A stretch of 64,000 nucleotides of DNA from a virus (IMGVR_UViG_3300021399_000109:94710-158709); one strand, 5' to 3'. Shown: positions 1-21,662, counted from the first letter of the stretch. Program-made: numbers and translations. Notes: generated by a model from the letters alone, not told the origin.

Positions 1-1
1 A

Positions 2-193
2 AGTGAATGTATCAAATTTTACAACTTAATTATTGAAGCTAACGGCAGACCTACAAGAAATGTTTTGAATAAAAATTTTCCTGTAGCTAAAGCCACAGAA
101 CTTTCCAGAGGTTTAAATATTGGAAAAATGGCAGTTGTAACAGATGAACAGCTTGTTTCCATGGCAAAAAAAACACTTGAAATTTTTGCCTAA
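2..193 (+). CDS. hypothetical protein, 3' end of a gene that starts upstream of the window
   Basis: Frame is open from the window edge to TAA at 191-193. A rho-independent terminator follows at 201-231. Confidence 0.4.
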   Translation, partial: SECIKFYNLIIEANGRPTRNVLNKNFPVAKATELSRGLNIGKMAVVTDEQLVSMAKKTLEIFA

Positions 194-200
194 TAAAAAA

Positions 201-231
201 AGAACAGAGATTTAATCTCTGTTCTTTTTTT
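201..231 (+). terminator. rho-independent terminator
   Basis: AGAACAGAGATTTAATCTCTGTTCT followed by T7. Confidence 0.7.
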
Positions 232-247
232 ATCTGATTTTTTTTTA

Positions 248-412
248 AGTTGTTAAAAACAATAAAAAATAACAGGGAAACAAAAAGTTTTTAACAACTT
301 AAATTTCAAAAACTGAAACGGATATTTTTAATAAAAAAATCAGTTGTTAAAAACTTTTATTTATTATTTTAGTTGTTAAAAACAAATAAAAAACATAAAG
401 TTTTTAACAACT
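248..412. repeat. intergenic cluster of the 13-nt motif AGTTGTTAAAAAC and its complement GTTTTTAACAACT (5 copies, alternating orientation)
   Basis: Copies at 248, 287(rc), 342, 371 and 400(rc). Confidence 0.85.
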
Positions 413-463
413 AAAATATTATAAGTGCCACAAAAAAAAGTTAAAAAAAATAAAAAAAAGGCA

Positions 464-492
464 TTGACAATTAAATAAAAATAAGATACAAT
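464..492 (+). promoter_or_regulatory. sigma70-type promoter (TTGACA-17-TACAAT), first of a tandem pair
   Basis: TTGACA at 464-469, 17-bp spacer, TACAAT at 487-492. A-tract upstream. Confidence 0.6.
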
Positions 493-582
493 AAGGACAA
501 CAACAAAAGAGAGCCACTTATTAGGTATCTTGCTTAGGGTCTCTGCTCAGGTGAGGTGCTTAAAAAAAAGTAAAAAAAACTC

Positions 583-611
583 TTGACAACTGAATCATGG
601 TTTGATACAAT
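583..611 (+). promoter_or_regulatory. sigma70-type promoter
   Basis: TTGACA at 583-588, 17-bp spacer, TACAAT at 606-611. Drives the gene at 664. Confidence 0.6.
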
Positions 612-663
612 CAAATCATCAAAAGAAACAAAAAAACAGAAAAACAGAAAAGGAGAAAAAAAC

Positions 664-915
664 ATGAATAACACTTTTAATTTACAGCCCTGTGATTCTC
701 ACAAATCTTTTTACGGAAAAGCTGTAGTTATTACAGAAAACAACAGCAAGTTTTTAAGAAGCTATAACACAATCGTTTGTCACATTGACGAGAACAACAA
801 TTTTATTAAGGATTGGTACGGCTATAGCGCAACCACTATGAGACATATTAACAGCTTTAGGGAATATTACGGATTCCCGAAAATGAGCAAAAAGGAATGG
901 GAAAATATGGAATAA
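664..915 (+). CDS. hypothetical early protein (83 aa)
   Basis: ATG preceded by AAAGGAGAAAAAAACATG. The ORF-track start at 583 lies inside the promoter, so the internal ATG is chosen. Confidence 0.55.
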   Translation: MNNTFNLQPCDSHKSFYGKAVVITENNSKFLRSYNTIVCHIDENNNFIKDWYGYSATTMRHINSFREYYGFPKMSKKEWENME

Positions 916-920
916 AAAAA

Positions 921-954
921 AAGAGGGGAACGAAAGTTTCCCCCCTTTTTTTTA
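921..954 (+). terminator. rho-independent terminator
   Basis: GGGGAACGAAAGTTTCCCC followed by T9. Confidence 0.7.
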
Positions 955-970
955 TTTTTTTATATTTTTC

Positions 971-1115
971 AGTTGTTAAAAACTAAAAAATATTTTTTCA
1001 ATTGTTGAAAACAATAAAACAACTATAAACAATAAAAGTTTTTAACAACTAATTTTTTAAATAAAAATTGTTTTTAACAACTTAAAAACAAAATCAAAAT
1101 CAAGTTGTTAAAAAC
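971..1115. repeat. same motif family, 5 copies
   Basis: Copies at 971, 1000 (variant AATTGTTGAAAAC), 1038(rc), 1070(rc) and 1103. Confidence 0.85.
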
Positions 1116-1229
1116 AATCCCTAATAAAATATTTAAAAAATAAAAAAAATATATATTGACAGTTAAAATAAAATATGATACCATACAATTACAAAATCAA
1201 TAAAACAAATAAAAACAAAGGAGAATACA

Positions 1230-1445
1230 ATGTTACAACTAAAAAGGTATATGAGAGAATATGCAACTGATATTTTAAAAGAAAAAAGAGAAAAAGCGGA
1301 AAAATGGGAAGACTGCCAATTTAATGAAGAAAAAGTATTATCTGAAATTTATCGTTGCTTTTCTTTATATGAATTAGGTTTAATCAGAAATATTGATGTA
1401 ATGAACAAATTAACAGAATTGGCAGAAGAAGACCAAATAAAATAA
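1230..1445 (+). CDS. hypothetical early protein (71 aa)
   Basis: RBS AAAGGAGAATACAATG. Promoter at 1156-1184 upstream. Confidence 0.5.
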   Translation: MLQLKRYMREYATDILKEKREKAEKWEDCQFNEEKVLSEIYRCFSLYELGLIRNIDVMNKLTELAEEDQIK

Positions 1446-1470
1446 TTTAAAAAAAATAAAAAAAAAGGTA

Positions 1471-1499
1471 TTGACAAATAAAAATAAATAATGTAACAT
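1471..1499 (+). promoter_or_regulatory. sigma70-type promoter
   Basis: TTGACA, 17-bp spacer, TAACAT. Confidence 0.55.
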
Positions 1500-1552
1500 A
1501 AAAGCATAGAAAACAACAACACAACAACAAACAACACAAAAGGAGAAAAAAC

Positions 1553-1726
1553 ATGAGAAATCATAAAACTGTAACTGCTATTGATTACACTGTAACCATT
1601 GAAGAGTATGACGCTATGAAAAATAATGTAGCTAACATGGTAAGAAAAGCTATTCAGAGAAAGGACGAAAAAATGTTCTTTAATTCCAGTAAGGAATACT
1701 ATAGAAGATATAAAAAAGAAGCCTAA
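1553..1726 (+). CDS. hypothetical small protein (57 aa)
   Basis: RBS AAAGGAGAAAAAACATG, identical to other early genes. Promoter at 1471-1499. Below the ORF-track length cutoff. Confidence 0.45.
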   Translation: MRNHKTVTAIDYTVTIEEYDAMKNNVANMVRKAIQRKDEKMFFNSSKEYYRRYKKEA

Positions 1727-1761
1727 AATCAAAATCTAAAACATAAAAAAGGGGATAAACC

Positions 1762-1926
1762 ATGAAAGAAACAAAAGAGCTGAAAGAATACAGAAGAAAC
1801 GCAAAAACTGTAGCTAAAGACTTTGGCTATGACGAAATTATGCCAGATGTAATTAAAAGAATTAATCAGGCAAAAACAGAATCAGAAATTAGCAGAATTT
1901 TAGCCACTTGTAGAAAAAAGTGGTAA
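1762..1926 (+). CDS. hypothetical small protein (54 aa)
   Basis: RBS AAAAGGGGATAAACCATG. Followed by terminator at 1934-1968. Confidence 0.4.
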   Translation: MKETKELKEYRRNAKTVAKDFGYDEIMPDVIKRINQAKTESEISRILATCRKKW

Positions 1927-1933
1927 GGGCTAC

Positions 1934-1968
1934 GAAAACAGGAAAGATAAATCTTTCCTGTTTTTTTT
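1934..1968 (+). terminator. rho-independent terminator
   Basis: ACAGGAAAGATAAATCTTTCCTGT followed by T8. Confidence 0.7.
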
Positions 1969-1988
1969 ATTTATCTTGCGCATTTTAA

Positions 1989-2160
1989 GTTTTTAACAAC
2001 TGAAAAAATAATAATAAAAAAAATTCAGTTGTTAAAAACAATAAATAATCTAAAATTGTTTTTGACAACTAAAAAAAAATATTTCAGTTGTCAAAAACAA
2101 AAAAATATATATAGTTTTCAACAACTGAAAAAATATAGAAAAATATCAGTTGTTAAAAAC
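1989..2160. repeat. same motif family, 6 copies including G/C variants
   Basis: Copies at 1989(rc), 2027, 2057(rc variant), 2084 (variant), 2114(rc variant) and 2148. Confidence 0.85.
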
Positions 2161-2259
2161 AATTAACATAAAATAAATAAAAAAAAATAGTTGACGAATT
2201 GAATAAAGTATGATATTATTTAATTACAGTAAATAATGCAATTCAAAAGGAGATTAACC

Positions 2260-2550
2260 ATGATTTTTTATGAAGGAATAGACCGTCAGATTTATACAGA
2301 TAAAGAATGTACAAAAGAAATTACAAAAGGTTTTAAAGATAATGACGTTTTAATGCTTAGATATATGCCTTTTGCCGTATATGATGAATTTATTGGATTT
2401 TGTTATCCTATTTTAAAATCCTTATTTATGAATTGTAAGTGGTGGAACGTTTATATTAATGATAACAAAGATTTAGTATTGTACAATGAAGATATGGGAG
2501 AAGAAAATTTTTATTTTTTAAAAGATTTAAAAATAACGCTTGACAATTAA
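2260..2550 (+). CDS. hypothetical early protein
   Basis: RBS CAAAAGGAGATTAACCATG. Internal ATG of the ORF-track frame is chosen. Confidence 0.5.
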   Translation: MIFYEGIDRQIYTDKECTKEITKGFKDNDVLMLRYMPFAVYDEFIGFCYPILKSLFMNCKWWNVYINDNKDLVLYNEDMGEENFYFLKDLKITLDN

Positions 2551-2568
2551 ATAAAATTATTATATTAT
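2540..2568 (+). promoter_or_regulatory. sigma70-type promoter
   Basis: TTGACA, 17-bp spacer, TATTAT. Confidence 0.55.
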
Positions 2569-2617
2569 TAAGATACAAACAACAAATAAATTCTTTCAAA
2601 AAAAAGGAGATAAAAAA

Positions 2618-2893
2618 ATGACAGGATTTACTTTTAGATTAGGAAGAAAAGATGTTTTTGTAGAAACTACAGCAAAAAACAAAACAAAAAAATTAGCAGA
2701 AAAAATTCTCTATAAATTAGAGTTGCCAGTAAATCCTGATACAATTAGCGAGGTGCTTTACTGGTTAATGAAAGCTAATTGTGAGATTAAAACGCTCAAT
2801 AATGGCAGACAGTATTATGATATTTATGGAAACAATTTTGGAGGATACGGCAGTTTTCTTGATGACGGTATGACCATTTTAATAAAAGTATAA
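2618..2893 (+). CDS. hypothetical early protein
   Basis: RBS AAAAAGGAGATAAAAAAATG. Terminator follows at 2898-2927. Confidence 0.5.
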   Translation: MTGFTFRLGRKDVFVETTAKNKTKKLAEKILYKLELPVNPDTISEVLYWLMKANCEIKTLNNGRQYYDIYGNNFGGYGSFLDDGMTILIKV

Positions 2894-2940
2894 ATAAAAA
2901 AGGGGAAACCCTTTTTTATTTTTTTATATTTTATTATTTC

Positions 2941-3017
2941 AATTGTTAAAAACAATAATTAATCAATAATAGTTTTTAACAATTAAAAAAAATAAATAAA
3001 AAACAAGTTGTTAAAAA
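2941..3017. repeat. same motif family, 3 copies
   Basis: Copies at 2941, 2972(rc) and 3005. Confidence 0.8.
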
Positions 3018-3137
3018 CAATATTTTAAAACAAAAAATTTTTTAAAAAAAATAAAAAAAGTATTGACAATTAAATAAAACTGTTATATCATTAAAATACA
3101 AAAAAAACAACAAACAATAAACAAAAGGAGAAAAAAC

Positions 3138-3647
3138 ATGGTAAAACTTACAGTTAATGAAATGATTCTGAAAACCATTAGCACAAAACTTAATAAAGAG
3201 CCTAAATATAAAGAGATTCTTGAGACTATGGGATATACAATTTATGATTCAACATGGAGTGGCTATAATAATTGGACTGTTAGGAATGAAAAAACTAATA
3301 GGGAAATTGTTTTTAGCAGAGGATATGACGGTAGAAAACGTTTATATGATGGTTCTCGTAATATTAAAACTTATGATTTTAAAAAAGTAGATTATGCAGG
3401 ATATTTAAATTGTAAAAGAAAACCTTATAATCCATATTCTTCCACAAAAGAAAATAAATATTCAAAACTTAGATATGGTCTTAAACATACAAAAGAAATG
3501 ATTCAAATGGATAATAGATGTATTGAAAGTATTCAAAGTAAAATTGATAAATTATCTGACCGTTTAAATCATGAAATAGAGTGCAGAAATGAACGATTTA
3601 AACATTTAGAGAAAATTAGAAAAGAAATTAAGGAATTAAAAAAATAA
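3138..3647 (+). CDS. hypothetical early protein (169 aa, basic)
   Basis: RBS AAAAGGAGAAAAAACATG. Promoter at 3063-3091. Terminator at 3655-3686. Confidence 0.55.
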   Translation: MVKLTVNEMILKTISTKLNKEPKYKEILETMGYTIYDSTWSGYNNWTVRNEKTNREIVFSRGYDGRKRLYDGSRNIKTYDFKKVDYAGYLNCKRKPYNPYSSTKENKYSKLRYGLKHTKEMIQMDNRCIESIQSKIDKLSDRLNHEIECRNERFKHLEKIRKEIKELKK

Positions 3648-3654
3648 ACGATAA

Positions 3655-3686
3655 AAAAACAGGAAATATTTTCCTGTTTTTTTTAT
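3655..3686 (+). terminator. rho-independent terminator
   Basis: ACAGGAAATATTTTCCTGT followed by T8. Confidence 0.7.
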
Positions 3687-3702
3687 AAATGGAATTAATT
3701 AT

Positions 3703-3831
3703 TTTTAACAACTAAAAAAATAATTTTAGTTGTTAAAAATAATTCTTTAACTAATTGTTTTTAACAATTAAAATTATTAAAAAACATTGTTTTTGACAAC
3801 TTAAAAAAATAATATTTTAATTGTTAAAAAC
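3703..3831. repeat. same motif family, 5 copies
   Basis: Copies at 3703(rc), 3728, 3757(rc), 3790(rc variant) and 3819. Confidence 0.8.
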
Positions 3832-3956
3832 TTAAAAATTATTAACTAATTTAATATAAAATAAATTAAAAAAATACTTGACAGAAAAATATATATATGA
3901 TATATTTAATACAGATAAAACAAAAACACAAACAAACAACGAAGGGAGAAAAACAT

Positions 3957-4514
3957 ATGTCAAGATTAGAAAACGTTATCAATCAGGTTAAGGATTTTCG
4001 TAATGATTCAACCGCATGGATTTTTGATAATAACGGTAATATTTCTGAGGATGTAATTTGTGGAGATATTCTGCCTGTTTTGGAAGAATTAAAAGATTAT
4101 GAAATCAATGTATCCGATGAATGGATTAATGATTTTAGAATAAAAGCTTATAAAAAAGGAAAGGGATATAATACTTATAACAATAATGCCAATATTTCTA
4201 ATGATATTAATATTGATTATCTTTACACGAAAAATAATGAATGTATCCTTCTTATTATGATACATTTAGTAGGCGATATTAGAGCAGGATATTCTGATTA
4301 TTTTGCCGTAAAATTTGAATGTATTGAAGAATTTTTTAGTCTGGAATGTTTTTATCAGTACATTGATATTAATGATAAATACTGTGCTGATATTAATTTA
4401 TTAAGTGAAATGTATACAGTTTATGACATTGTTAATGGAATAGAAATTGGTGAATTTTACGAAATAGAAAAAACTGATTTATTAGAATCAATTAAAGAGA
4501 GAATCGCATCATAA
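3957..4514 (+). CDS. hypothetical early protein
   Basis: RBS GAAGGGAGAAAAACATATG. Internal start chosen because the ORF-track start sits in the promoter. Confidence 0.55.
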   Translation: MSRLENVINQVKDFRNDSTAWIFDNNGNISEDVICGDILPVLEELKDYEINVSDEWINDFRIKAYKKGKGYNTYNNNANISNDINIDYLYTKNNECILLIMIHLVGDIRAGYSDYFAVKFECIEEFFSLECFYQYIDINDKYCADINLLSEMYTVYDIVNGIEIGEFYEIEKTDLLESIKERIAS

Positions 4515-4521
4515 TATTGAT

Positions 4522-4556
4522 AAAAAAGGAACAGATTAAAATCTGTTCCTTTTTTT
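4522..4556 (+). terminator. rho-independent terminator
   Basis: GGAACAGATTAAAATCTGTTCC followed by T7. Confidence 0.7.
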
Positions 4557-4571
4557 ATTAATATTTTTTTC

Positions 4572-4686
4572 AGTTGTTAAAAACAATAAATATATATAAA
4601 GTTTTTAACAATTAAAAAAATATAAAAAACAAAAATAAGTTGTTAAAAACAATTTAATAGTAGATAGAATTTCAATTGTTAAAAAC
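4572..4686. repeat. same motif family, 4 copies
   Basis: Copies at 4572, 4601(rc), 4637 and 4674. Confidence 0.8.
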
Positions 4687-4724
4687 AATAAAAAAAAATA
4701 TAAAAAAAAATTTTTTATATTTAC

Positions 4725-4753
4725 TTGACAAATAAAAATTGATAAGATATAAT
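4725..4753 (+). promoter_or_regulatory. sigma70-type promoter (perfect consensus)
   Basis: TTGACA, 17-bp spacer, TATAAT. Confidence 0.65.
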
Positions 4754-4810
4754 AAAGTCAACAACAAAAAACAACAATAAATCAACTAAATTAAAAAAAG
4801 GAGAAAAAAC

Positions 4811-5413
4811 ATGAGAACAATTACAGAAACAATTACAACTGTAGTTTATAATTTTAATGAGTTGTCAGACAATGCAAAAGAAAAAGTTAGAGAACAGTAT
4901 TTAAACGGACAAGATGCTGAATTTTTTTATGAGGATTCTATGGCTTATATTAATGAATTATTCCCGAATAGTAAATTAGATATTCAGTTTTCTTTAGGAT
5001 ATTGTCAGGGAGATGGATTTAATATTTATGGAGAAATTTCTTTTTTTGATTTAATGAAAAATTTAAAAGACAAATTTACAGAAAAAGAAAAAAGATTCCT
5101 TGAATGGGCTTTTAATGAATCAGGGATTAATTCTTATACAATGCAAATGAATAACCATTATTGCTATTGTAACGCATTTTTGCACGAGTTTACAGAAGAT
5201 GTTTTTTATGAATTAGATTATTATAGAATGAAAAACATCAAAAAAGATATATTAGATAAATTTAATACAGAAGCCAGATATTATATTGGACATATCTGTA
5301 AAGAATTTGAAAATGATGGTTATGATTATTTTTATGAAATATCCAATGAGGAATTAGAAGATTGGGCTGATGCCAATGAATATGAATTTACAGAAGATGG
5401 TAACATTTATTAA
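4811..5413 (+). CDS. hypothetical early protein, paralog of 6908-7513
   Basis: Same length and shared blocks (TVYNxxELS, LxxQFSxxY, NIYG, C-terminal YEFxExGxIY) with the 201-aa ORF at 6908. Confidence 0.6.
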   Translation: MRTITETITTVVYNFNELSDNAKEKVREQYLNGQDAEFFYEDSMAYINELFPNSKLDIQFSLGYCQGDGFNIYGEISFFDLMKNLKDKFTEKEKRFLEWAFNESGINSYTMQMNNHYCYCNAFLHEFTEDVFYELDYYRMKNIKKDILDKFNTEARYYIGHICKEFENDGYDYFYEISNEELEDWADANEYEFTEDGNIY

Positions 5414-5466
5414 TAAAAAACGGGTAGATTTTATCTACCCGTTTATTTTTATATATTGAAATTATT

Positions 5467-5546
5467 GTTTTTGACAACTAATATTTTTGTGGTTTTAATT
5501 GAATTGTTTTTAACAACTAAAAAAAATATATTGAGTTGTTAAAAAC
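5467..5546. repeat. same motif family, 3 copies
   Basis: Copies at 5467(rc variant), 5506(rc) and 5534. Confidence 0.8.
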
Positions 5547-5674
5547 AATTTATTTATAAAGAAAAATAAATTTAAAAATAATTTAAATTATAGTTGACAA
5601 ATAGTTTTTTATATGATATGATTACTACAGTTCAAAAAGAACAGCAACAAACAATTGCAAAAGGAGGAAAAAAT

Positions 5675-5935
5675 ATGAGAATCACAACAGAAATTAATAG
5701 TATTGCAAATTTTGAAGCATGGAGCGGTGGAGCAGATACTTTAAACAAAATAATTGATTTAGGGTATGAATACATAGATATGCTTGATGAATTAGCAGAG
5801 ATAACGTTTGAAGGTGAATGTACAGATACAGAATTAAATGATTGGCTTTGGTTTGATAGTGATTCTATTTATGAATATCTCGGACTTGATGAAGACGGAA
5901 ATATTCCAGATGAGGAAGAAGATGAGGAATGGTAA
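5675..5935 (+). CDS. small highly acidic protein
   Basis: RBS AAAAGGAGGAAAAAATATG. Asp/Glu-rich C-terminus (DEDGNIPDEEEDEEW). Confidence 0.45.
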   Translation: MRITTEINSIANFEAWSGGADTLNKIIDLGYEYIDMLDELAEITFEGECTDTELNDWLWFDSDSIYEYLGLDEDGNIPDEEEDEEW

Positions 5936-6330
5936 TGAGAAACAATATAAAAAAACCGTTTAAAAGAAATTTAAAAATGTATAGAAATTATGTTTGCCCT
6001 TTTTGTTTTAATCAGATAAATAAATGTACCTGTGAAATCTATCCGCCATATACATTAATTTTAATAGATGAAAACATGCAGGAAGTTATTAAAAAATTAA
6101 ATGAAAAGGGATATAAAACAAGATATTCTTGTGAAAGTCATTATGAATATACTTATAATATTTATATTAAATTTTGGAGAAGATATATCTTTAAAAACTT
6201 ACCAGAAGGCTTTATTTATAAAGATAATACAATCGAACATATAATAAAAAATTTTAAGAATGAAAAAGATTTTAATCAGGAAAAAGAAAAATATTTAGAT
6301 ATTTTAAAAGAATGGGTCAACACATTATAA
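5929..6330 (+). CDS. hypothetical Cys-cluster protein
   Basis: Overlaps the upstream stop. N-terminal CPFC...CTC cluster. Confidence 0.45.
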   Translation: MVMRNNIKKPFKRNLKMYRNYVCPFCFNQINKCTCEIYPPYTLILIDENMQEVIKKLNEKGYKTRYSCESHYEYTYNIYIKFWRRYIFKNLPEGFIYKDNTIEHIIKNFKNEKDFNQEKEKYLDILKEWVNTL

Positions 6331-6403
6331 TACCACAATATAAAAAATAAAACAGAAATATTTTTAATGTTTCTGTTTTATTTTTTTATTATGCAAAAAA
6401 TTA

Positions 6404-6447
6404 AGTTGTTAAAAACAATTTTTTTATTATTAATTGTTTTTAACAAC
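6404..6447. repeat. same motif family, 2 copies forming an inverted pair
   Basis: Copies at 6404 and 6435(rc). Confidence 0.8.
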
Positions 6448-6486
6448 TAATAATTTTAAAAAAAATAAAAAATATTTAAAATCCTA

Positions 6487-6515
6487 TTGACATAATAATA
6501 AATATCTGATATAAT
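6487..6515 (+). promoter_or_regulatory. sigma70-type promoter (perfect consensus)
   Basis: TTGACA, 17-bp spacer, TATAAT. Confidence 0.65.
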
Positions 6516-6561
6516 ACAATCAAATAAAAAAATATTAATTACAAATTACAAAGGAGAAAAA

Positions 6562-6816
6562 ATGCAGAAAAAAGAATATTGTTATAAAATTATTACAAAA
6601 ACAGAAAAAATTTTTTATATTGGTTGTCCTTTTGGCTTATACCATGTTTTTGTAACTAATAAAAATCATACGGAGAATTATAGTCTTTATGGTGGTTATA
6701 AAAATTTAGGAACGGCATCAAATAAAATGTTAAACACTATTGACAAAAATGATATTATTAGTTATTATTATGCTACTAAAGAATTAATTCTTAAAAACGG
6801 TGCATTTGGAATGTAA
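6562..6816 (+). CDS. hypothetical protein
   Basis: RBS CAAAGGAGAAAAAATG. Promoter at 6487-6515. Confidence 0.4.
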   Translation: MQKKEYCYKIITKTEKIFYIGCPFGLYHVFVTNKNHTENYSLYGGYKNLGTASNKMLNTIDKNDIISYYYATKELILKNGAFGM

Positions 6817-6907
6817 AAAAAATTATAAAAAAGTATTGACATTTTATAAAAAGAATAGTATAATAACATTAAAGTTAAATAAAACAAAAAACAGGAAGGG
6901 ATAATAA

Positions 6908-7513
6908 ATGAAAACAATCACAAAAATCATTAAAATCACAGTTTACAATTACGATGAATTATCAACAGAAGCTAAAAAAAACGTAGAAACACTTTATCTT
7001 AATAGTTTAAATCCAATTGGTTTTAAGGGAATATGGGAAGGAGGATTAGAAGCCTGTTTTCCTCATAGCGATTTAAATCTCCAGTTTTCTTTTAATTATG
7101 ATAAAGAAGATGGGGCTAATATTTATGGAAGAATTTCTTATAAAGATTTAATTGCCTTTTTTAGAGATTCTTTTACAGAAAAAGAAATGTCAATAATAGA
7201 GCGAACTATTCAAAAATCTAATATAAATTCTTGCATAATGGAAGAAAATATTTATGGAAATTATTGCGTCATGCACTGGAATAATTTTATTTGTGATATT
7301 GTAGATGAATTATATCCAGAAGATAATGCTCCAGAAGATGTATTAAACATATTATTTAAATTTAACAATAAAATTAAAAATTACTTTTATACACTTTGTG
7401 ATAATATTAAAACAGCAGGATATAAATATTTTTACGAAGTCAATGAAGAAAAGATAAAAAATTGGATTGATACTAATAAATATGAATTTTTAGAAAATGG
7501 AGATATTTATTAA
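6908..7513 (+). CDS. hypothetical early protein, paralog of 4811-5413
   Basis: Paralogy to 4811-5413. RBS CAGGAAGGGATAATAAATG. Promoter at 6836-6864. Confidence 0.6.
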   Translation: MKTITKIIKITVYNYDELSTEAKKNVETLYLNSLNPIGFKGIWEGGLEACFPHSDLNLQFSFNYDKEDGANIYGRISYKDLIAFFRDSFTEKEMSIIERTIQKSNINSCIMEENIYGNYCVMHWNNFICDIVDELYPEDNAPEDVLNILFKFNNKIKNYFYTLCDNIKTAGYKYFYEVNEEKIKNWIDTNKYEFLENGDIY

Positions 7514-7570
7514 TTCAATCAATAAAAGGCAAATGAAAATTTGCCTTTTATTTTATTTATTTTTTAATTA

Positions 7571-7642
7571 TTTTTAACAACTTAAAAAATAAATAAAATC
7601 AGTTGTTAAAAACAATTATTTTTTAAATAGTTTTTAACAACT
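7571..7642. repeat. same motif family, 3 copies
   Basis: Copies at 7571(rc), 7601 and 7630(rc). Confidence 0.8.
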
Positions 7643-7667
7643 TAAAAAAAAATAAATAAAAAAACAC

Positions 7668-7696
7668 TTGACAAAATAAAAAAAATAATATATAAT
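7668..7696 (+). promoter_or_regulatory. sigma70-type promoter (perfect consensus)
   Basis: TTGACA, 17-bp spacer, TATAAT. Confidence 0.65.
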
Positions 7697-7752
7697 GCAA
7701 TTGTTCTGAAAACAAATAACTTAAAACATAAAAAAGGAAGAAGGTGATAATA

Positions 7753-8211
7753 ATGTTGTATGTAGCATATGGAAGTAACACAAACTTAGAACAGATGGAA
7801 TTTAGATGTCCAAATTCTACATTAATTGGAAATGGAAAAATTAAAGGATGGAAACTGGTTTTTAATATTCATGCTGACATAGTAAAAGGTAAAAAGACAG
7901 ATGAAGTTCCAGTTGTTATATGGGATATTCATTATAAAGATTGGAAAAATTTAGATACATATGAAGGGTATCCAAAATACTATATCAGAAAGAAAATTAA
8001 AGTCCAGAAAGATTCGGGTAAAGAAATTTTTGCTATAGTCTATGTTATGACAAAAGATAGAAAAGGATTTTCTCCTCCGATGGAAAGATATTTTAATGTA
8101 TGCGAAGCAGGTTATATAGAAAATGGTCTTGATACAAAATATCTTTATGACGCTTTAAGAGATTCTTGGGAAAATGAAACCTTTTATAATCAATATAATC
8201 CTAAATCTTAA
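7753..8211 (+). CDS. gamma-glutamyl cyclotransferase-like (AIG2/GGCT fold) protein
   Basis: N-terminal VAYGSNTNLEQMEFRCP resembles the YGSN motif of GGCT/AIG2-like proteins. Confidence 0.45.
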   Translation: MLYVAYGSNTNLEQMEFRCPNSTLIGNGKIKGWKLVFNIHADIVKGKKTDEVPVVIWDIHYKDWKNLDTYEGYPKYYIRKKIKVQKDSGKEIFAIVYVMTKDRKGFSPPMERYFNVCEAGYIENGLDTKYLYDALRDSWENETFYNQYNPKS

Positions 8212-8217
8212 TAATAA

Positions 8218-8255
8218 GAGGAAAAGCGGTATTACCGCTTTTCTTTTTTTTATTG
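8218..8255 (+). terminator. rho-independent terminator
   Basis: GAAAAGCGGTATTACCGCTTTTC followed by T8. Confidence 0.7.
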
Positions 8256-8267
8256 TTAATTATTAAA

Positions 8268-8377
8268 GTTTTTAACAACTAAAAAATATTAAAAAATTAG
8301 TTGTTAAAAACAATTTAATTAAAAAATAGTTTTTAACAACTAAAAAAATAAAAATAAAAAAATCAGTTGTTAAAAAC
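8268..8377. repeat. same motif family, 4 copies
   Basis: Copies at 8268(rc), 8300, 8329(rc) and 8365. Confidence 0.8.
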
Positions 8378-8509
8378 AATAAAATATAAAATAAAAAAAT
8401 AAATTAAAAAAAATACTTGACGGAATAAATAAAATGTGATACTATAAGACCATAGAAACAAACAGAAAAAAAACAAATTAATTATTAATTAAAGAAAAAA
8501 AGAAACACT

Positions 8510-8683
8510 ATGAACACATTTGAAATTTATTTTAATGATTTATCTGAAACTTGTCAGCAGGATTTACTGGAAAAATATGGAATTAAAAGCCCTAAAGAAA
8601 TGAATTGGGATATTTTTCCTGTAACAGTTATTGAAATTTATGGAGATGTATATGAAGATATATATAGTACATGTAATCTTTAA
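8510..8683 (+). CDS. hypothetical small protein (57 aa)
   Basis: Intact ORF between promoters 8417-8445 and 8709-8737. RBS is weak. Confidence 0.35.
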   Translation: MNTFEIYFNDLSETCQQDLLEKYGIKSPKEMNWDIFPVTVIEIYGDVYEDIYSTCNL

Positions 8684-8785
8684 ATAAAAAAATAAATTAA
8701 AAAAATAGTTGACAAAATAAATAAAATATGATAATATAAAAGCATAGAAAACAAAAACAAATTAATTAAAGAAAAGGAGAATATT

Positions 8786-9904
8786 ATGACAAACACAATG
8801 ACAAACGCAAACGCAATTGTAACTGTAGGTAATTCTGTACAGATTGGTACGGATAGCAAAGGTAAACAGACAGTAATACCTGTTATCACTTCTATGGAAC
8901 AGTATTCAAGTCTCTTTCCTACACAGAGTTGGAGTGCATGGGATGATAGGTCTCTTCTCTGGAGTGGTGTGGGTAAAGATATGAGCCATGATATGGATAC
9001 TGATACAGTTTTTAAACTGGCAGGTCTTAATTATGGAGTTGCTAAAGTTCCTACCTATATCAATAGGTACGACTTCACTGGAAAAGCCCTGACAGGCTTT
9101 GACCTTGTGGCAAATGGGAATGATTTTATCCAGATTCCTATGTATGCCATTGTTCGGGATGATAATGTAACATTTCTCGGTTCAGGGACAGAAGGATTGA
9201 ATCCTCTTGCCAATGAAAAAACAAGAGAGCTTTGTAATCTTCTTTTCAAGTTAGGTTTTCGTTACGAGAACGCAGGAGTATTTGATGGTGGCAAGGTTAC
9301 GTATGTTTCCATGAAATGGAAAGGTGCGGTTCTTTCGGGAGAAAAGTTTGATTATTATGTAGTAATTATCAACTCTTTTGACCAGACTAAACCCTTTGGT
9401 ATTTATATCACTCCTGTTAGAGTATCTTGTAAAAACACACTTAATCTTGCTATCAAAAAAGCTGTAAGATTTTGGAAAATTAAGCATACCAAAACAGCAG
9501 AGATTAAGTTACAGGAAGTACAGGAAAGTCTGATGGCATTTGAGCATTATATCCATGGTCTTGATACAGAAATTGACCGTATGAAAATGCTTACAATGAA
9601 TGATGATAAAGTTATGAAATTTTTCGAAACGTTATTCCCTATTGAGAATGGAATGACGCAGAGATTGATTGATAATGCTATGCGTCAGAGAAAAGAGTTG
9701 GCATATCGCTATTTGAATGCCCCTGACCTTGATGGAATGGAAAAGAGTGCTTTTAGGCTGATGTGTGCGGTAACAGACTATGCTGACCATACTCTTCCTC
9801 AAAAGAACACTAAAAATTGGAAAGCAAATCGTTTCCTTAAAAATATGTCTGGAACTAATAATATTATTGTGGAAACACAGAGATATATTGATTCCATGTT
9901 CTAA
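8786..9904 (+). CDS. hypothetical protein (372 aa)
   Basis: Long ORF. RBS AAAGGAGAATATTATG. Terminator at 9922-9958. Confidence 0.6.
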   Translation: MTNTMTNANAIVTVGNSVQIGTDSKGKQTVIPVITSMEQYSSLFPTQSWSAWDDRSLLWSGVGKDMSHDMDTDTVFKLAGLNYGVAKVPTYINRYDFTGKALTGFDLVANGNDFIQIPMYAIVRDDNVTFLGSGTEGLNPLANEKTRELCNLLFKLGFRYENAGVFDGGKVTYVSMKWKGAVLSGEKFDYYVVIINSFDQTKPFGIYITPVRVSCKNTLNLAIKKAVRFWKIKHTKTAEIKLQEVQESLMAFEHYIHGLDTEIDRMKMLTMNDDKVMKFFETLFPIENGMTQRLIDNAMRQRKELAYRYLNAPDLDGMEKSAFRLMCAVTDYADHTLPQKNTKNWKANRFLKNMSGTNNIIVETQRYIDSMF

Positions 9905-9973
9905 CATATTCTAATTAAAATAGTAAAAGGATACCTGTATAGGTATCCTTTTACTTATTATTAATATATTTTA

Positions 9974-10146
9974 AATTGTTAAAAACAATATAATAATATT
10001 AAAAATATATTTTTTAAGTTGTTAAAAACTATTAGTTTTATTGTTTTAGTTTTTAACAACTATTTTTTAAGTTGTTAAAAACTTTTATTAATTAATCATT
10101 GTTTTTAACAACTAAAAAAATTAAAAAAAATTAAGTTGTTAAAAAC
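9974..10146. repeat. same motif family, 6 copies; last cluster before the family stops
   Basis: Copies at 9974, 10017, 10049(rc), 10067, 10099(rc) and 10134. Confidence 0.8.
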
Positions 10147-10256
10147 AATATAAATAATTTAAAAAAATATTTTTAATTTTATTATTGACAATAAAGATAA
10201 AATATGATATTGTAATTACAGAAACAAAAACAAATAAATAAACAAAGGAGAAAAAT

Positions 10257-10400
10257 ATGATTGAATTATTTAAAGCTTTTATTATTTTTGAAAAAAGAAG
10301 AATGGAAGAGTGCGAAATTGGTTTGAAAGATTTTATTTTATTTTTTTCTGTAATTATAATGTTTTGTATTATTTGTCGTTTTATTGGAGTTGAACAATAA
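10257..10400 (+). CDS. hypothetical small hydrophobic protein (47 aa)
   Basis: RBS AAAGGAGAAAAATATG. Promoter at 10185-10213. Hydrophobic C-terminal half. Confidence 0.3.
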   Translation: MIELFKAFIIFEKRRMEECEIGLKDFILFFSVIIMFCIICRFIGVEQ

Positions 10401-10722
10401 TAAGATAATAAGTAATAACAAATAAAATGATAAATAAGTATTGACAAAAAGAAAAAAATATGTTATAGTAATTAAGAAATATGATATAATGGAGGGTGGA
10501 CGTGGGAGGGTAATATTATTATATTAATATATTTATTATATTAATATATAAAATATATAATAAATTAACAATTTTTGTTGGTTGTTTAAAAAAATAAGTA
10601 AGAGAAGAATTTGATTTAGAATTTTAAAATTAAAATACTTGACAGACTAAATAAAGGATGATAATATAACCATAGAAACAAAAACGTAAATAAAATAAGA
10701 AAGGAATTAAGGAGAATAAAAA

Positions 10723-11031
10723 ATGGTCTTATGGTTCGAAAATTATGATGGATATGTTGAAATTAATAACTATGACAATTTAGGAGATATTGTCTTATTT
10801 GTTGAAAATTTTCTTAACAATCGTCTTAAAGAAATTAAAAATAAAAACAATAATTTTAATTTTATTCACAATTATAATAATACATTTTTTACTAAAATCA
10901 ATTTAGATTATGATTATAGTAAAAGAATATTCATGGCAGAAGGAGATGTCCGCATAGAAGGAGAAATTTGGAGAAAAGATACGGTAGATGAACTTAGAGA
11001 AACATATTGTTTTATTGTAGAAAGGTATTAA
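10723..11031 (+). CDS. hypothetical protein
   Basis: RBS AAGGAGAATAAAAAATG. Promoter at 10639-10667. Confidence 0.5.
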   Translation: MVLWFENYDGYVEINNYDNLGDIVLFVENFLNNRLKEIKNKNNNFNFIHNYNNTFFTKINLDYDYSKRIFMAEGDVRIEGEIWRKDTVDELRETYCFIVERY

Positions 11032-11049
11032 AATAAATTAAAAAAACAC

Positions 11050-11078
11050 TTGACAAATAAGAAATAATTAATTATAAT
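11050..11078 (+). promoter_or_regulatory. sigma70-type promoter (perfect consensus)
   Basis: TTGACA, 17-bp spacer, TATAAT. Confidence 0.65.
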
Positions 11079-11119
11079 AGAATCATAAAAAACAAATTAA
11101 AATAAGAAAGGGAAAAAAT

Positions 11120-11440
11120 ATGGAAAAATATATTGTTACTATTAAAAATTCTGATTGTTTTATTTCAGATGATGAAAATTATGTTTTTGATACTAAAGAA
11201 GAAGCGGAAAGTTTCATTAAAAGACTTTATGTATTTAATTATTTAGACGATGAACCTTATATTAATAAGGATGAAGAAGAAACTTATTTTAATAAAAAAT
11301 ATCATGAAGGAAGAATCACTTATATTAGCGGTGAATGGGCAGATTATTCTATTAACAAAGCTGATGACCCTACTTTTATATTTAATGCTTTAAATTATGA
11401 TTATGTATTAGACGTATTAAACACTATTCCAGAAGGATAA
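11120..11440 (+). CDS. hypothetical protein
   Basis: RBS AAAGGGAAAAAATATG. Promoter at 11050-11078. Confidence 0.5.
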   Translation: MEKYIVTIKNSDCFISDDENYVFDTKEEAESFIKRLYVFNYLDDEPYINKDEEETYFNKKYHEGRITYISGEWADYSINKADDPTFIFNALNYDYVLDVLNTIPEG

Positions 11441-11543
11441 ATAGATAAATAAAATAAAAAAAAACACTTGACAGTTAAATACAAAAATATTATAATAATA
11501 ATATAAATAAAAAAAAACAAACTAAAAAGGAGTAAAAGAAAAT

Positions 11544-12044
11544 ATGAAAACAAAAACAGGCTATAAACTCTTTAGACAGGATAAAAAAGGAAATCTTCAT
11601 CCTTTATACGTCTTTCGTAAAGATACTATTCCTGTAGGGGAATGGGTACTTGCAAAAGATAATCCCCCTATGACTGATAATGGCAAGGTTAAGGGTAAAA
11701 TGGAGTTACATTATAGAGCAGGTTTTCATGTTGCAGGACTTAGACCCTATGCTCCTCAGATTACTAATACAAATGGATGTGTATGGTGTAAAGTAGAATA
11801 TTGTGTTGACATTGATTACAATGAAGAAGCACAAAAAAACGGAACAAATAAAGATGGAAAAATTATTCCTATTAAATCCGAACTTGACAGATTACCTTAC
11901 ATGGGTTATTATTATTTTAAAACTTCTTGGAAACAGGAAGAGCCTTGGATTATATGTGACAGAATTAAAGTTACAGAAATTCTTAGTTGGGAAGAAGTAG
12001 ATAAATTAAATAAAGAATTTCTTGAAAAAACACTTGACAATTAA
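11544..12044 (+). CDS. hypothetical protein
   Basis: RBS AAAAGGAGTAAAAGAAAATATG. Promoter at 11467-11495. Confidence 0.5.
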   Translation: MKTKTGYKLFRQDKKGNLHPLYVFRKDTIPVGEWVLAKDNPPMTDNGKVKGKMELHYRAGFHVAGLRPYAPQITNTNGCVWCKVEYCVDIDYNEEAQKNGTNKDGKIIPIKSELDRLPYMGYYYFKTSWKQEEPWIICDRIKVTEILSWEEVDKLNKEFLEKTLDN

Positions 12045-12062
12045 ATATAATATTGTTATAAT
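12034..12062 (+). promoter_or_regulatory. sigma70-type promoter (perfect consensus)
   Basis: TTGACA, 17-bp spacer, TATAAT. Upstream of the DUF262 gene. Confidence 0.65.
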
Positions 12063-12110
12063 AACAACATAAACAAAAACAAATTTAAACAAAGAAAGGA
12101 ATTAAAAACA

Positions 12111-13394
12111 ATGGAAAACATCATGAACACAAATGAAGCAACCGTAAACACAGTAATTGAAAACACAGAAGTAAACACAACAAATACAGAAAAGGAGATT
12201 AATACTATGACAGAAACAACTATGAACACAGAAATGAATACAGAAACTAATGCAACTGAAATGACTGATGAACAGGTACTGGACATTATTAAGGAAGAAA
12301 GGAATTTTGATTTTGATAATCTTGAGCGTTACAGTAAACATTCTGTACCGTGGTCTGTAAAACAGATGGTAGCTTCTATGAATAAAGGAACAGCAAAATT
12401 TGATAATACTGTTCAGAGAAGTCTTGTTTGGACGAAAGAAAAGAAATCCAGACTTATTCACACTGTAATTCTTAATCTTCCTTGCCCTCCACTGTATGCA
12501 AATGTATATAAAGATAAGGAAACAGGAAAAAAAATTTATGATTTCCTTGATGGTAAGCAGAGAAGTCATGCCTTTAAAGAATTTCTTGAAGATGGTTTTG
12601 AATTAACAGATGTGCCTGTTCTTACTTTCTCTGATGGAAAAGAATTTGATTTAAATGGGTATAAATTTTCTGAACTTCCTGAAGAACTTAAAGATATGAT
12701 TAGAGATTATAGTTTGAGCATCTTTGTACTGGAAGACCTCAACGAAGACGAAGTTGCCGATTTGTTCTATATTCTGAACAATGGTGTGAGTCTTACTAAA
12801 ATTGAAATTAGTAGGGTTAAGGCGAATAGCCTTGATTCCATTCATAAGGTTTCTAACCATCCTTTGTTCGATATTTGTCTGACAGAAAAGGCAAAAGCGA
12901 AATACTATAATGAAGATATTGTAGTAAAGGCATTTGCACTTCTGTTTAATGCAACTGATTCTCTTGAAAATAAGGATATTCGTCCTTATATGGAGACAAT
13001 GGAACTGACAGAAGAAGATATTAATGGAATGAATAATCTTCTGGATATTATGTATGATATTTATAATACGGAAATTGCTAAAGGCACTCCCGAAGCAAAG
13101 AAAGTAGCTAAAAAAATTACCACCAGAACACATTTCATTGCACTGATTCCTTTTATTTACAGAGGATATAAGGAAGATAGAACACTTGACCAGATGACAG
13201 AATGGATTGAAACATTCTTCAATACTGGTACAAGAGCAACAACTGTATCTGAATATTATAATGATGCTTGCCGTTCTAATGCGAATAGTTCTATGAACGT
13301 TCATGTAAGGAATAGAGAAATTGAGATTTCTTATGAGGGATTTTTCCTTGGAAAGCCCGAAGAAGAGTATCTGGAAGAGCATCATTACAACTAA
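12111..13394 (+). CDS. DUF262 (ParB/sulfiredoxin-like nuclease) domain protein with an Asn/Thr-rich repetitive N-terminus
   Basis: FLDGKQRSHAF resembles the DGQQR motif of DUF262/GmrSD N-terminal domains. QRSLVW is also present. The first 50 aa are an NT/TE low-complexity repeat. Confidence 0.55.
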   Translation: MENIMNTNEATVNTVIENTEVNTTNTEKEINTMTETTMNTEMNTETNATEMTDEQVLDIIKEERNFDFDNLERYSKHSVPWSVKQMVASMNKGTAKFDNTVQRSLVWTKEKKSRLIHTVILNLPCPPLYANVYKDKETGKKIYDFLDGKQRSHAFKEFLEDGFELTDVPVLTFSDGKEFDLNGYKFSELPEELKDMIRDYSLSIFVLEDLNEDEVADLFYILNNGVSLTKIEISRVKANSLDSIHKVSNHPLFDICLTEKAKAKYYNEDIVVKAFALLFNATDSLENKDIRPYMETMELTEEDINGMNNLLDIMYDIYNTEIAKGTPEAKKVAKKITTRTHFIALIPFIYRGYKEDRTLDQMTEWIETFFNTGTRATTVSEYYNDACRSNANSSMNVHVRNREIEISYEGFFLGKPEEEYLEEHHYN

Positions 13395-13408
13395 TGACAA
13401 TTAAATTA

Positions 13409-13441
13409 ATAGGGACTATAAATTAGTCCCTATTATTTTTT
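13409..13441 (+). terminator. rho-independent terminator after the DUF262 gene
   Basis: ATAGGGACTATAAATTAGTCCCTAT followed by a T-run. Confidence 0.65.
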
Positions 13442-13534
13442 AAAAAAAATAGTTGACAAATAACAAAAAATTTGATATTATTATATTAGAAAACAAATCA
13501 CTGTTTATTAACATTTATAAGAAAGGGAAAAAAT

Positions 13535-14059
13535 ATGAAAAACTTAACAAAACTGTTTAACGAGTGCATTGCGGATTGTGATTCTTTAGGTATTAAGTAT
13601 GGACGTATTACTAATGTATCTGTTAACACAAGAGCAAAGAGAAGATGGGGGCAGACAAAAACACATAGACCCTATAAATATAGTACATGCCATAAAGATT
13701 ATACTTTTGATATTAGCATCTCCAATCGTCTGTTAGAAGATGATGTTGAAGACATGATGGCGAAGAATACTATAATGCACGAGATTCTTCATACTGTTGA
13801 AGATTGTCAGAATCATGGTGATAAATGGAAAGCTATGGCAGATAAAGTGAATCGGGCATATGGGTATAATGTCAAAAGATGTACATCTTCTGAAGAAAAG
13901 GGAATTGAGCCTGTAAAAATTACTCACAATAAAAACTATGTTATTACATGCCAGAAATGCGGTGCAACAGTAATTAGACATCGAATGTCTGATTTTGTTA
14001 AGTATCCCTATTGCTATTCTCATAAAGATTGTGGTGGATACTTTATGAGAGTTCGATAA
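13535..14059 (+). CDS. SprT-like zinc metalloprotease domain protein
   Basis: HEILH (HExxH) motif plus C-terminal CQKCG...CYSHKDCGG zinc ribbon. Confidence 0.5.
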   Translation: MKNLTKLFNECIADCDSLGIKYGRITNVSVNTRAKRRWGQTKTHRPYKYSTCHKDYTFDISISNRLLEDDVEDMMAKNTIMHEILHTVEDCQNHGDKWKAMADKVNRAYGYNVKRCTSSEEKGIEPVKITHNKNYVITCQKCGATVIRHRMSDFVKYPYCYSHKDCGGYFMRVR

Positions 14060-14077
14060 AAAAGGAGGTAAATATAA

Positions 14078-14572: not shown

Positions 14573-14574
14573 TT

Positions 14575-17806: not shown

Positions 17807-17878
17807 AGGGCTATAGCCAAGCGGTAAGGCACAGGACTTTGACTCCTGCATTCGTTGGTTCGAATCCAACTAGCCCTG
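17807..17878 (+). tRNA. tRNA-Gln (anticodon TTG)
   Basis: Cloverleaf: acceptor AGGGCTA/TAGCCCT, anticodon stem CAGGA/TCCTG with loop CTTTGAC, T-arm GTTGG-TTCGAAT-CCAAC. Confidence 0.8.
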
Positions 17879-18632: not shown

Positions 18633-18704
18633 GGTCGGTTAGTCAAGTGGTTAAGACACAAGGTTTTCATCCTTGGAACAGGAGTTCAATTCTCCTACCG
18701 ACTA
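18633..18704 (+). tRNA. tRNA-Glu (anticodon TTC)
   Basis: Acceptor GGTCGGT/ACCGACT, anticodon stem CAAGG/CCTTG with loop TTTTCAT, T-arm AGGAG-TTCAATT-CTCCT. Confidence 0.75.
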
Positions 18705-18757
18705 TTTTCATGTTTGGTTAAAATTAGTTTATTAATAGAGAAAGGGGAAAACAAAAC

Positions 18758-18940: not shown

Positions 18941-19004
18941 AATTTTAAAACAGTAAAAGTTAAATCAATTATTAATTAAATATTATCAAACAAAGGAGAA
19001 AAAA

Positions 19005-20800: not shown

Positions 20801-20805
20801 TTTTA

Positions 20806-21660: not shown

Positions 21661-21662
21661 TT

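Follow-up and report, generated by a model that had tools for sequence, protein, structure and literature searches.

The stretch of viral DNA analysed here (the window, 64,000 nucleotides of one strand, positions 94710-158709 of IMGVR_UViG_3300021399_000109) carries, in the gaps between the genes of its first 10 kb, a family of short repeats that are candidate binding sites for a regulator of early genes. By exact protein matches the window was placed on a source contig of 158,921 bp (ENA ERZ28612961, SHIW14-1_SAMN02144230-S010 scaffold_83), and identical sequence was present in other samples. Assemblies of 157.8-158.8 kb with close homologues of the polymerase gene suggest that the complete genome is about 159 kb; the motif counts and the search for a repressor gene described below cover 81.7 kb of the 158.9-kb genome. 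Judged by its genes, the phage is a large uncultivated relative of Bacillus phage SPbeta. The DNA polymerase III alpha encoded in the window is 38% identical to SPbeta YorL, and a DnaB-type helicase, RecD2, NrdD, a TnpB-like protein and nine tRNAs are encoded there as well.

The window holds 30 exact copies of the 13-nt motif AGTTGTTAAAAAC, or 45 if one mismatch is allowed, always within 248-10146, while no exact copy is expected from dinucleotide-preserving shuffles of the window. A further copy, at 1000-1012, has two mismatches. From 10147 to 64000 the best matches are two with two mismatches, the number expected by chance. All 45 copies reside in 11 intergenic clusters, as a preliminary description made from the window alone had stated, and the order it had read in each gap, a terminator followed by motif copies and then a consensus promoter, was recovered at every one of them. 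The clusters start 17-29 bp 3' of an intrinsic terminator and end 26-52 bp 5' of a promoter of the TTGACA-N17-TATAAT type. The genes of this stretch are all on the plus strand, consensus promoters are present in every gap, and terminator-like sites are enriched ten-fold (24 observed versus 2.4 expected). Four gaps with a promoter and no terminator (1445-1553, 2550-2618, 6816-6908 and 8683-8786) contain no copies, so the arrays belong with the junction of terminator and promoter and not with promoters per se. The alternating orientation claimed for the copies holds for most of them, but not strictly, as patterns such as ><>><, <<> and >><><> occur here and runs of >>>> and <<<<<< occur in relatives (> plus strand, < minus strand). 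The arrays of the window are the following.

248..412: array 1, five copies (248+, 287-, 342+, 371+, 400-), after a terminator at 193-233 and before a promoter at 464-492.
971..1115: array 2, four copies plus the one with two mismatches (971+, 1000+ with two mismatches, 1038-, 1070-, 1103+), terminator 925-943, promoter 1156-1184.
1989..2160: array 3, six copies in strict alternation (<><><>), terminator 1934-1965, promoter 2191-2219.
2941..3018: array 4, three copies (><>), terminator 2892-2921, promoter 3063-3091.
3701..3831: array 5, five copies (<><<>), terminator 3653-3683, promoter 3878-3906.
4572..4686: array 6, four copies (><>>), terminator 4522-4555, promoter 4725-4753.
5467..5546: array 7, three copies (<<>), terminator 5418-5444, promoter 5594-5622.
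6404..6448: array 8, two copies (><), a hairpin with T-run at about 6349-6385 (seen by eye, unflagged by the scan), promoter 6487-6515.
7570..7642: array 9, three copies (<><), terminator 7521-7552, promoter 7668-7696.
8268..8377: array 10, four copies (<><>), terminator 8216-8248, a TTGACG promoter at about 8417.
9974..10146: array 11, with which the family ends, six copies (>><><>), terminator 9922-9955, promoter 10185-10213.

The apparent restriction of the family to the first 10 kb proved to be an artefact of the window edge, because copies continue for 6.8 kb upstream of window position 1. The abrupt stop after 10146 holds within the 81.7 kb read, and the copies form a single block there, although a larger one than had been claimed; the confinement to this block is provisional. 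In total about 134 copies in 20 clusters occupy 16.9 kb (window -6786 to 10146), all of them intergenic. The first cluster is a gene-free array of 1.4 kb with 39 copies, mostly direct repeats; within it are a 29/30-bp tandem run and a palindromic stretch rich in AT. The 19 others are each flanked by a terminator and a near-consensus sigma-A promoter. Immediately upstream of the 39-copy array is the gene of a 298-aa amidoligase-like protein, one homologue of which has PF12224. The N-terminus of this protein contains a CxxC...CxxC zinc-ribbon-like segment, and the leader of its gene, about 200 nt, is unusually G+C-rich (L007 1380-1590; window about -7950 to -7750) and had no match in Rfam. On the 5' side of the gene, about 1.3 kb from the 39-copy array, is a divergent control region in which DnaA boxes cluster (L007 about 1130-1400; window about -8200 to -7940), two of them perfect (TGTGGATAA) and three with one mismatch. 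Further short direct repeats accompany the boxes between the amidoligase-like gene and a tightly packed operon of small minus-strand genes, which lies past the divergent region and is motif-free except for one copy with one mismatch in its leader.

The 16.9-kb block of arrays begins where the two directions of transcription diverge. Relatives that share the array layout encode, on the minus-strand side of this point, a YonO-like RNA polymerase, a YonN-like HU protein, YonG, YonJ and terminase, an order of genes that is also found in SPbeta. Packaging of the SPbeta genome begins between yonR and yonP, where the packaged molecule opens. This is the same divergence point, so the array block would abut a genome end in at least the first headful, and the DnaA-box region, which stands where SPbeta has its pac/opening site, may serve as an origin or for packaging.

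The site itself was defined from a profile of 129 copies, TTTnAGTTGTTAAAAACWAT. Positions 3-6 and 9-12 were invariant (129/129 copies), and the only changes seen were G2>A, T7>C, A8>G and C13>T. The core is a 12-bp pseudo-palindrome, GTTG-TTAA-AAAC, composed of one perfect and one degenerate half-site (half-site GTTG; weaker flanks TTTnA before and WAT after), and the 14-bp span AGTT[G]TTAA[A]AACT is palindromic except for one fixed asymmetric pair. Centres are rarely less than 27 bp apart, the commonest distances being 29-30 and 36-37 bp; convergent pairs are close together, with 28 of the 34 at 27-31 bp. Over the whole family 80 copies are in plus and 54 in minus orientation. A conserved spacer between convergent pairs, AATnnnnAATCCnAAATT, was considered as a second site of the whole clade and rejected, since it is present only here and in the closest relative (L034) and so reflects a recent duplication.

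Substitutions between this phage and a variant from another metagenome (L016-L019; 80-92% identical, arrays retained) were used to ask how the motif changes. The substituted positions amounted to 3.1% in the motif, compared with 10.2% in other intergenic DNA, which also had many indels, and 8.6% in coding DNA (Fisher tests, p = 3e-16 for motif versus other intergenic DNA and p = 8e-12 for motif versus coding DNA). The motif is under purifying selection and changes about three-fold more slowly than the spacers.

The amidoligase-like protein led to three more distant phages (L026, L027 and L028), in which it shares 57-59% identity with the copy here. Their loci show an amidoligase-like gene, a non-coding array of 1-1.7 kb and then small plus-strand genes with gaps of 300-500 bp, and the early proteins they have in common with this phage are 53-85% identical, except for DUF8033 proteins (29-58%). 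The identical 12-mer, GTTGTTAAAAAC, is present in 36-48 exact copies per locus of 18-21 kb (about 10 kb of early region) and never within called genes, although the spacers cannot be aligned between these lineages. The base 5' of the 12-mer varies, and the runs of one orientation mentioned above come from these loci. A motif read from one window is thus conserved across related phages, and these range from 26 to 33% in G+C. Other relatives have other motifs in the same place, and four versions were distinguished.

Version 1: GTTGTTAAAAAC, in this phage, L034, L026, L027 and L028.
Version 2: a perfect palindrome, GTTG-N4-CAAC, with variable centre, in L038 (37.5% G+C).
Version 3: a bipartite unit of about 26 bp, accAAAAAa, 5-7 nt, ATtTTtAAAAAT, mostly in one orientation, in L032 and L033.
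Version 4: AT-only units of the TATATTATAT type, in L039 (20% G+C).

The palindrome of L038 occurs at 26 sites in 2.6 kb (0.8 expected), none of them in genes, with spacing modes of 28 and 36 bp. In L032 and L033 the core of the bipartite unit is ACCAAAAAA, 5-7 nt, ATTTTTAAAAAT; in these two phages the amidoligase-like protein has 39-43% identity, and L033 carries YonG, YonJ and terminase. As all four versions share one layout of terminator, array and promoter, the layout is clade-wide and the motif is specific to the lineage. The GTTG-type versions are two-fold symmetric in sequence, as would be expected if a dimeric protein binds them. Two phages with several early genes in common with this one (L012 and L013; 77-96% protein identity) have these genes packed as operons with no arrays at all.

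Two other non-coding elements were observed beside the arrays. Right after array 11, at 10481-10560, a conserved element consists of ggagggtggacgtgggagggt followed by repeats of the TATTATATTAATATAT type; it recurs in the array-less L012 (9336-9440), and AT-only repeats similar to the TATTATATTAATATAT type form the arrays from terminator to promoter in the intergenic gaps of L039. This element may be a mosaic boundary or a second repeat code. Next to array 1, two near-consensus promoters stand in tandem (464-492 and 583-611) with a stretch of about 90 nt of higher G+C between them, which may be a small RNA; a Rfam scan of 464-611 gave no match.

Searches of databases with the motif did not connect it with a known repeat. 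No close relative was found when positions 1-12000 of the window were compared by megablast with public phage records. Arrays or the paired pattern of the motif were absent from IMG/VR, where a looser pair pattern gave four matches, each a single hairpin in an unrelated contig. Among representative genomes of 185,579 species, the paired pattern matched once, as a single palindromic pair in an Anaerocolumna metagenome-assembled genome (MAG), and a host repeat of the REP/BIME or MITE type was rejected on this ground. A Rfam scan of the arrays had no match, and a literature search on the motif returned unrelated papers only. Clustered regularly interspaced short palindromic repeats (CRISPR) are direct repeats of 23-47 bp, all oriented alike and separated by unique spacers of about the same length; a CRISPR array was rejected here, as the repeat has 12-13 bp, occurs in both orientations and is distributed over 20 separate intergenic clusters. 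Integron attC sites were rejected on geometry or distribution.

We hold, with moderate confidence, that the arrays are sites for a dimeric, lineage-specific DNA-binding protein, a candidate presumed to be encoded by the phage, which would control the early genes together. Arrays of binding sites for a regulator had been one of four options offered in the preliminary description, and this option is the best supported, by the pseudo-symmetric 12-mer, the purifying selection, the conservation in relatives and the other motifs found in the same layout. Symmetric invariant 12-mers at a minimum spacing of about 27 bp, selection on the motif only, identity across lineages and replacement of the motif in others are together what would be expected of the operator of a conserved dimeric protein. 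From these observations we infer the protein that reads the site, its coding by the phage and the sign of the regulation. That the arrays fill all the non-transcribed DNA 5' of about 20 near-consensus promoters, with a sink of about 40 sites at the head of the block, suggests that the early genes are controlled in concert. A distance of at least about 27 bp between copies would fit a protein footprint. In the proposed mechanism, the protein, most likely a phage product, would bind the arrays cooperatively, with the gene-free array of 39 sites acting as nucleation centre or sink, and the bound arrays would switch about 30 monocistronic early genes of the host-takeover and anti-defence type together. 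An activator is superfluous at promoters that already match the consensus, which makes repression the likelier direction; by analogy with MrpR/SPBRE and with the stoperators discussed below, it could act at the transition from early to middle expression or silence the genes in an immune or carrier state.

Several observations weigh against this reading. The sites are clear of the -35 and -10 elements, and the last site of an array lies at a variable 26-52 bp upstream of the -35, which is no classical operator geometry, so that repression is deduced from the promoters and activation or insulation would also be possible. Concerted evolution of the repeats through recombination could explain part of their sequence identity. 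As 81.7 of 158.9 kb were read, the lack of a repressor gene and the confinement of the motif are both provisional. No helix-turn-helix or repressor family came up in Pfam for 60 window proteins or for the upstream early proteins. The SPbeta repressor MrpR (YopR) has a recombinase fold and is catalytically dead; the only recombinase-like protein seen here, a tyrosine-recombinase-like protein of 317 aa (14575-15528), had no similarity to it in BLASTP (E = 8.6). Finally, the conserved core of an early protein of 68 aa, p68, is invariant across lineages that have different motifs.

Further candidates for the reader were sought among the early proteins. Neither Pfam nor PHROGs gave a DNA-binding family for them or for 60 further window proteins, sequence searches of the PDB with p68, p135 and p96b had no match, and no homologue of MrpR was found within the 81.7 kb. 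The 317-aa protein was rejected as a reader of the MrpR type, being unrelated to MrpR and intact-looking in its catalytic residues (R...HxxR...H...Y retained); it is weakly similar to YopP (24%, 2e-6), and homologues of it occur in array-less relatives too. The gene of p68 opens the window.

1..193: plus strand, 3' part of p68, the 68-aa early gene, which starts 13 nt before the window.

A p68 protein is encoded by each of the five phages that share the motif. Its AlphaFold model, made from an alignment of two sequences, is weak (best pLDDT 77.8, the other four 42-52). The core, GRP and ExSRxLxxG, is unchanged in L038 and L039 despite their other array motifs, so p68 is not the determinant of specificity and was rejected as reader of the motif; one homologue (L036) adjoins a gap free of arrays. 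YonO was rejected as well, because the YonO RNA polymerase of SPbeta uses a single late promoter. The YonN-type HU-like protein, found in L026, L027 and L033, is a candidate reader by analogy with SPO1 TF1, though its presence in this phage could not be shown.

A more speculative form of the regulator reading, which we think rather improbable, is that a lineage-specific dimeric protein polymerises over more than 100 operators and forms a continuous nucleoprotein coat, a so far undescribed global switch in SPbeta-like metagenome phages of about 110-160 kb. The coat would cover all the non-transcribed DNA of the early block by the packaging site, would be nucleated at the gene-free array of about 40 sites, and could act as a one-step shut-off or immunity device. 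Possibly it would also be a physical barrier, for protection of the DNA or for pacing its entry like the first-step transfer of T5. Because every lineage has its own motif, such a coat would give each of them private control and private recombination compatibility.

Of the explanations that do without a regulator, the one that survives best takes the arrays mainly as joints of recombination, where a portable homology of terminator, array and promoter lets a single-strand-annealing system shuffle gene cassettes while concerted evolution keeps the 12-mer. As the principal role of the arrays we consider this unlikely, although part of what it predicts was found when the related phages were aligned for cassette exchange, as the preliminary description had proposed. 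The closest relative, L034, is collinear with this phage at 81-96% nucleotide identity and differs in three respects, all with breakpoints at the edges of arrays: p112 here is replaced by two genes in L034, the p90 and p78 cassettes are missing from L034, and L034 has one additional DUF8033 cassette. In the variant contig L017, a duplicated p96a cassette stands in place of p112, again between arrays. Gene order differs among all the relatives, and the paralogues at 4811 and 6908, taken earlier as a hint of shuffling, are indeed related, with 40% identity. The window also encodes a PD-(D/E)XK nuclease and an AAA_24 protein, of the family of the Sak4-type annealing recombinases. The promoter/terminator cassettes of T4-type phages known as PeSLs are a documented precedent (PMC2839356).

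However, concerted evolution alone would let the motif drift, yet the exact 12-mer is found in three diverged lineages whose spacers cannot be aligned. Homology-driven exchange requires neither the two-fold symmetry nor the perfect palindrome of L038. Moreover, the 200-aa gene at 4811-5413 (homology 4788-5416) is 95% identical in nucleotides to a gene of the array-less L012 (14025-14654), and the homology ends exactly at the ribosome-binding site (RBS) and the stop codon. This indicates, from the aligned sequences, a recent exchange of an ORF-sized module between different regulatory contexts; with breakpoints at the ends of the reading frame, outside the arrays, cassettes can be exchanged independently of them. 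The sequence comparisons show arrays as joints of cassette gain, loss and replacement, in our view as a secondary effect. The earlier option of recombination hotspots thus stands as an evolutionary consequence, with breaks inside arrays in the two closest relatives, but leaves the invariant 12-mer unexplained.

It is also conceivable, though quite unlikely in our judgement, that a host protein reads the sites, the arrays being a sponge for a global regulator or nucleoid protein of the host or recruiting it to the entering DNA. That no phage-encoded reader was found would agree with this, and so would the different G+C contents (20%, 27% and 37%) of the lineages with different motifs, which may mean different hosts. 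The core TTGTTAA is moreover a half-site of the clostridial Rex box (TTGTTAAnnnnTTAACAA), but the half-sites abut here, GTTGTT being directly followed by AAAAAC, instead of lying 4 nt apart, so the site is not a Rex operator. The near-absence of the paired pattern from the representative genomes, and the identical motif across phages of 26-33% G+C, also speak against a host reader.

A replication, partition or packaging element, with iterons, centromere-like sites or terminase sites at the 39-copy array and the dispersed clusters as auxiliaries for handcuffing or titration, is in our opinion very unlikely. The 1.4-kb array with its tandem run and palindromic stretch, so near to the DnaA boxes, does suit an iteron-like element, as had been suggested, and the same position in SPbeta is the pac site, where the packaged genome opens. 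The suggestion does not suit the 19 other clusters, which extend over 15 kb and lie without exception between terminators and promoters, tying the family to transcription units. No gene for an initiator (Rep), ParB/ParR or TubR was found nearby, and known systems of iterons, centromeres or pac sites are, to our knowledge, limited to one or two loci. Folding of inverted neighbours into 13-bp stems, of RNA or of DNA, to be processed by RNase III or to block read-through, was the remaining early option and is hardly tenable: such neighbours can pair on paper and 2056-2100 and 10048-10083 were flagged as terminator-like, but the arrays lie 3' of efficient-looking terminators and 5' of promoters, inverted pairs containing a variant were discordant in 28 of 32 cases and concordant in 4 (permutation p = 0.15), the 39-copy array is mostly direct repeats, Rfam had no match, and the missing covariation together with an orientation left unfixed in relatives, with their long same-orientation runs, makes RNA hairpins unlikely.

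Genes of the early block resemble anti-defence sets or the 'leading-region' sets of plasmids (window 664-15528; L029 1-9368; L026 20555-20882), with DUF8033, DUF932, GGACT, GmrSD_N-like, SprT-like, ArdC-like (L026), Lar_restr_allev, HicA and nucleoside deoxyribosyltransferase-like members. DUF932 and GGACT belong to the early programme, and the GmrSD-like, SprT-like and, in a relative, ArdC-like genes lie just past the arrays. Further along the window, a cluster of nine tRNA genes (Gln, Glu, two Ser, Asn, Ile-TAT, Trp, Lys and Leu) occupies gaps that had seemed to lack genes at 17807-22762, and a TnpB-like ORF at 22892-24247 (Cas12f1-like TNB domain, an accessory gene of the IS200/IS605 type) is followed by a gene-free stretch of 560 bp. 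The DNA polymerase III alpha is in two parts, of 835 aa (37698-40205) and 464 aa (41326-42720), where relatives have a single protein of 1306 aa, and one ORF (40346-41242) lies within the gap. The scan of the window proteins gave a LAGLIDADG_3 hit in Pfam, with the match not assigned per protein, which probably belongs to this ORF; the split is probably due to an intron or to insertion of a homing endonuclease.

If about 134 sites are indeed read by one protein, the whole early programme of a group of uncultivated large phages of low-G+C hosts would be under a single master regulator. The layout also supplies a searchable rule, since a terminator, a motif array at a spacing of about 30 bp and a consensus promoter reveal early cassettes and their regulatory code from sequence. 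This code is swapped among lineages, in four versions so far, akin to immunity specificities. The picture drawn from SPbeta, of one MrpR operator per promoter, would be extended to a denser arrangement with another geometry, and regulatory arrays would be linked with the turnover of cassettes, as in the PeSLs of T4-type phages.

The nearest known system is that of SPbeta itself, where the repressor MrpR (YopR) binds a repeated element, SPBRE, at 10 early promoters (PMC10516654). The lineage is related (SPbeta-type DNA polymerase III alpha; relatives with YonO-, YonN-, YonG- and YonJ-like genes), and the block is the same, with plus-strand early genes by the divergence and pac point and with arrays before every terminator-flanked early promoter. 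In both, one short motif stands at many early promoters as a genome-wide control site, a function that is a prediction in the present case. SPBRE differs in being a single element of about 24 bp per promoter (CAAATACAAAwAATATGTATATAA), which overlaps the -10 or RBS at about 10 loci, whereas in this phage an unrelated 12-mer stands 2-39 times in a gap, on the 5' side of the -35, and about 134 times in total. The copies of SPBRE recovered from SPbeta bore no resemblance to GTTGTTAAAAAC, and this 12-mer was not enriched in SPbeta at 45-90 kb.

The stoperators of cluster A mycobacteriophages (L5, Bxb1) are single 13-bp sites bound by a monomer, located inside transcribed DNA with their orientation tied to transcription (PMC9283540). 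Like the present sites they are asymmetric, of 13 bp and placed at more than 20 intergenic positions per genome, and they serve the genome-wide silencing that is proposed here. Variants of the stoperator motif also differ between lineages. They are unlike the near-palindromic arrays of 2-39 copies that follow terminators here; the whole block is transcribed in the plus direction, yet 54 of its copies point the other way and 80 along it.

PeSLs of T4-type phages are described as modules of a strong sigma-70-type promoter and a stem-loop that flank early ORFans (PMC2839356, PMC4122927), and mini-circles have been reported for them. A composite of promoter and terminator flanks early ORFans here too, and the modules are breakpoints of insertions, deletions and replacements between close relatives, which is also the case for this phage with L034 and L017. 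The modules so described consist of promoter and stem-loop only, whereas here a conserved array of a 12-mer stands in between, and they belong to the T4-type myovirus group and its hosts, whereas this is an SPbeta-like phage.

Plasmid iterons and global operators offer the last comparison. The P1 RepA iterons with incA, the P1 C1 operators and the OB sites of RK2 KorB are short repeated sites in both orientations, dense as well as dispersed, and the dense array by an AT-rich region with DnaA boxes plus dispersed intergenic sites is like them. The copy number here is 5- to 10-fold higher, with sites at every terminator-promoter gap of the block, and no gene of the Rep, ParB or KorB type was found in Pfam scans of the early and window proteins. 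From replication iterons the family differs further in having 20 clusters over 16.9 kb, next to a gene that is amidoligase-like and not an initiator. None of these systems matched on the defining features tested. The density of about 134 sites, the strict layout of terminator, array and promoter, and the lineage-specific code appear to be undescribed, and the family combines features of dispersed phage operators, PeSL-type cassettes and iteron-like arrays.

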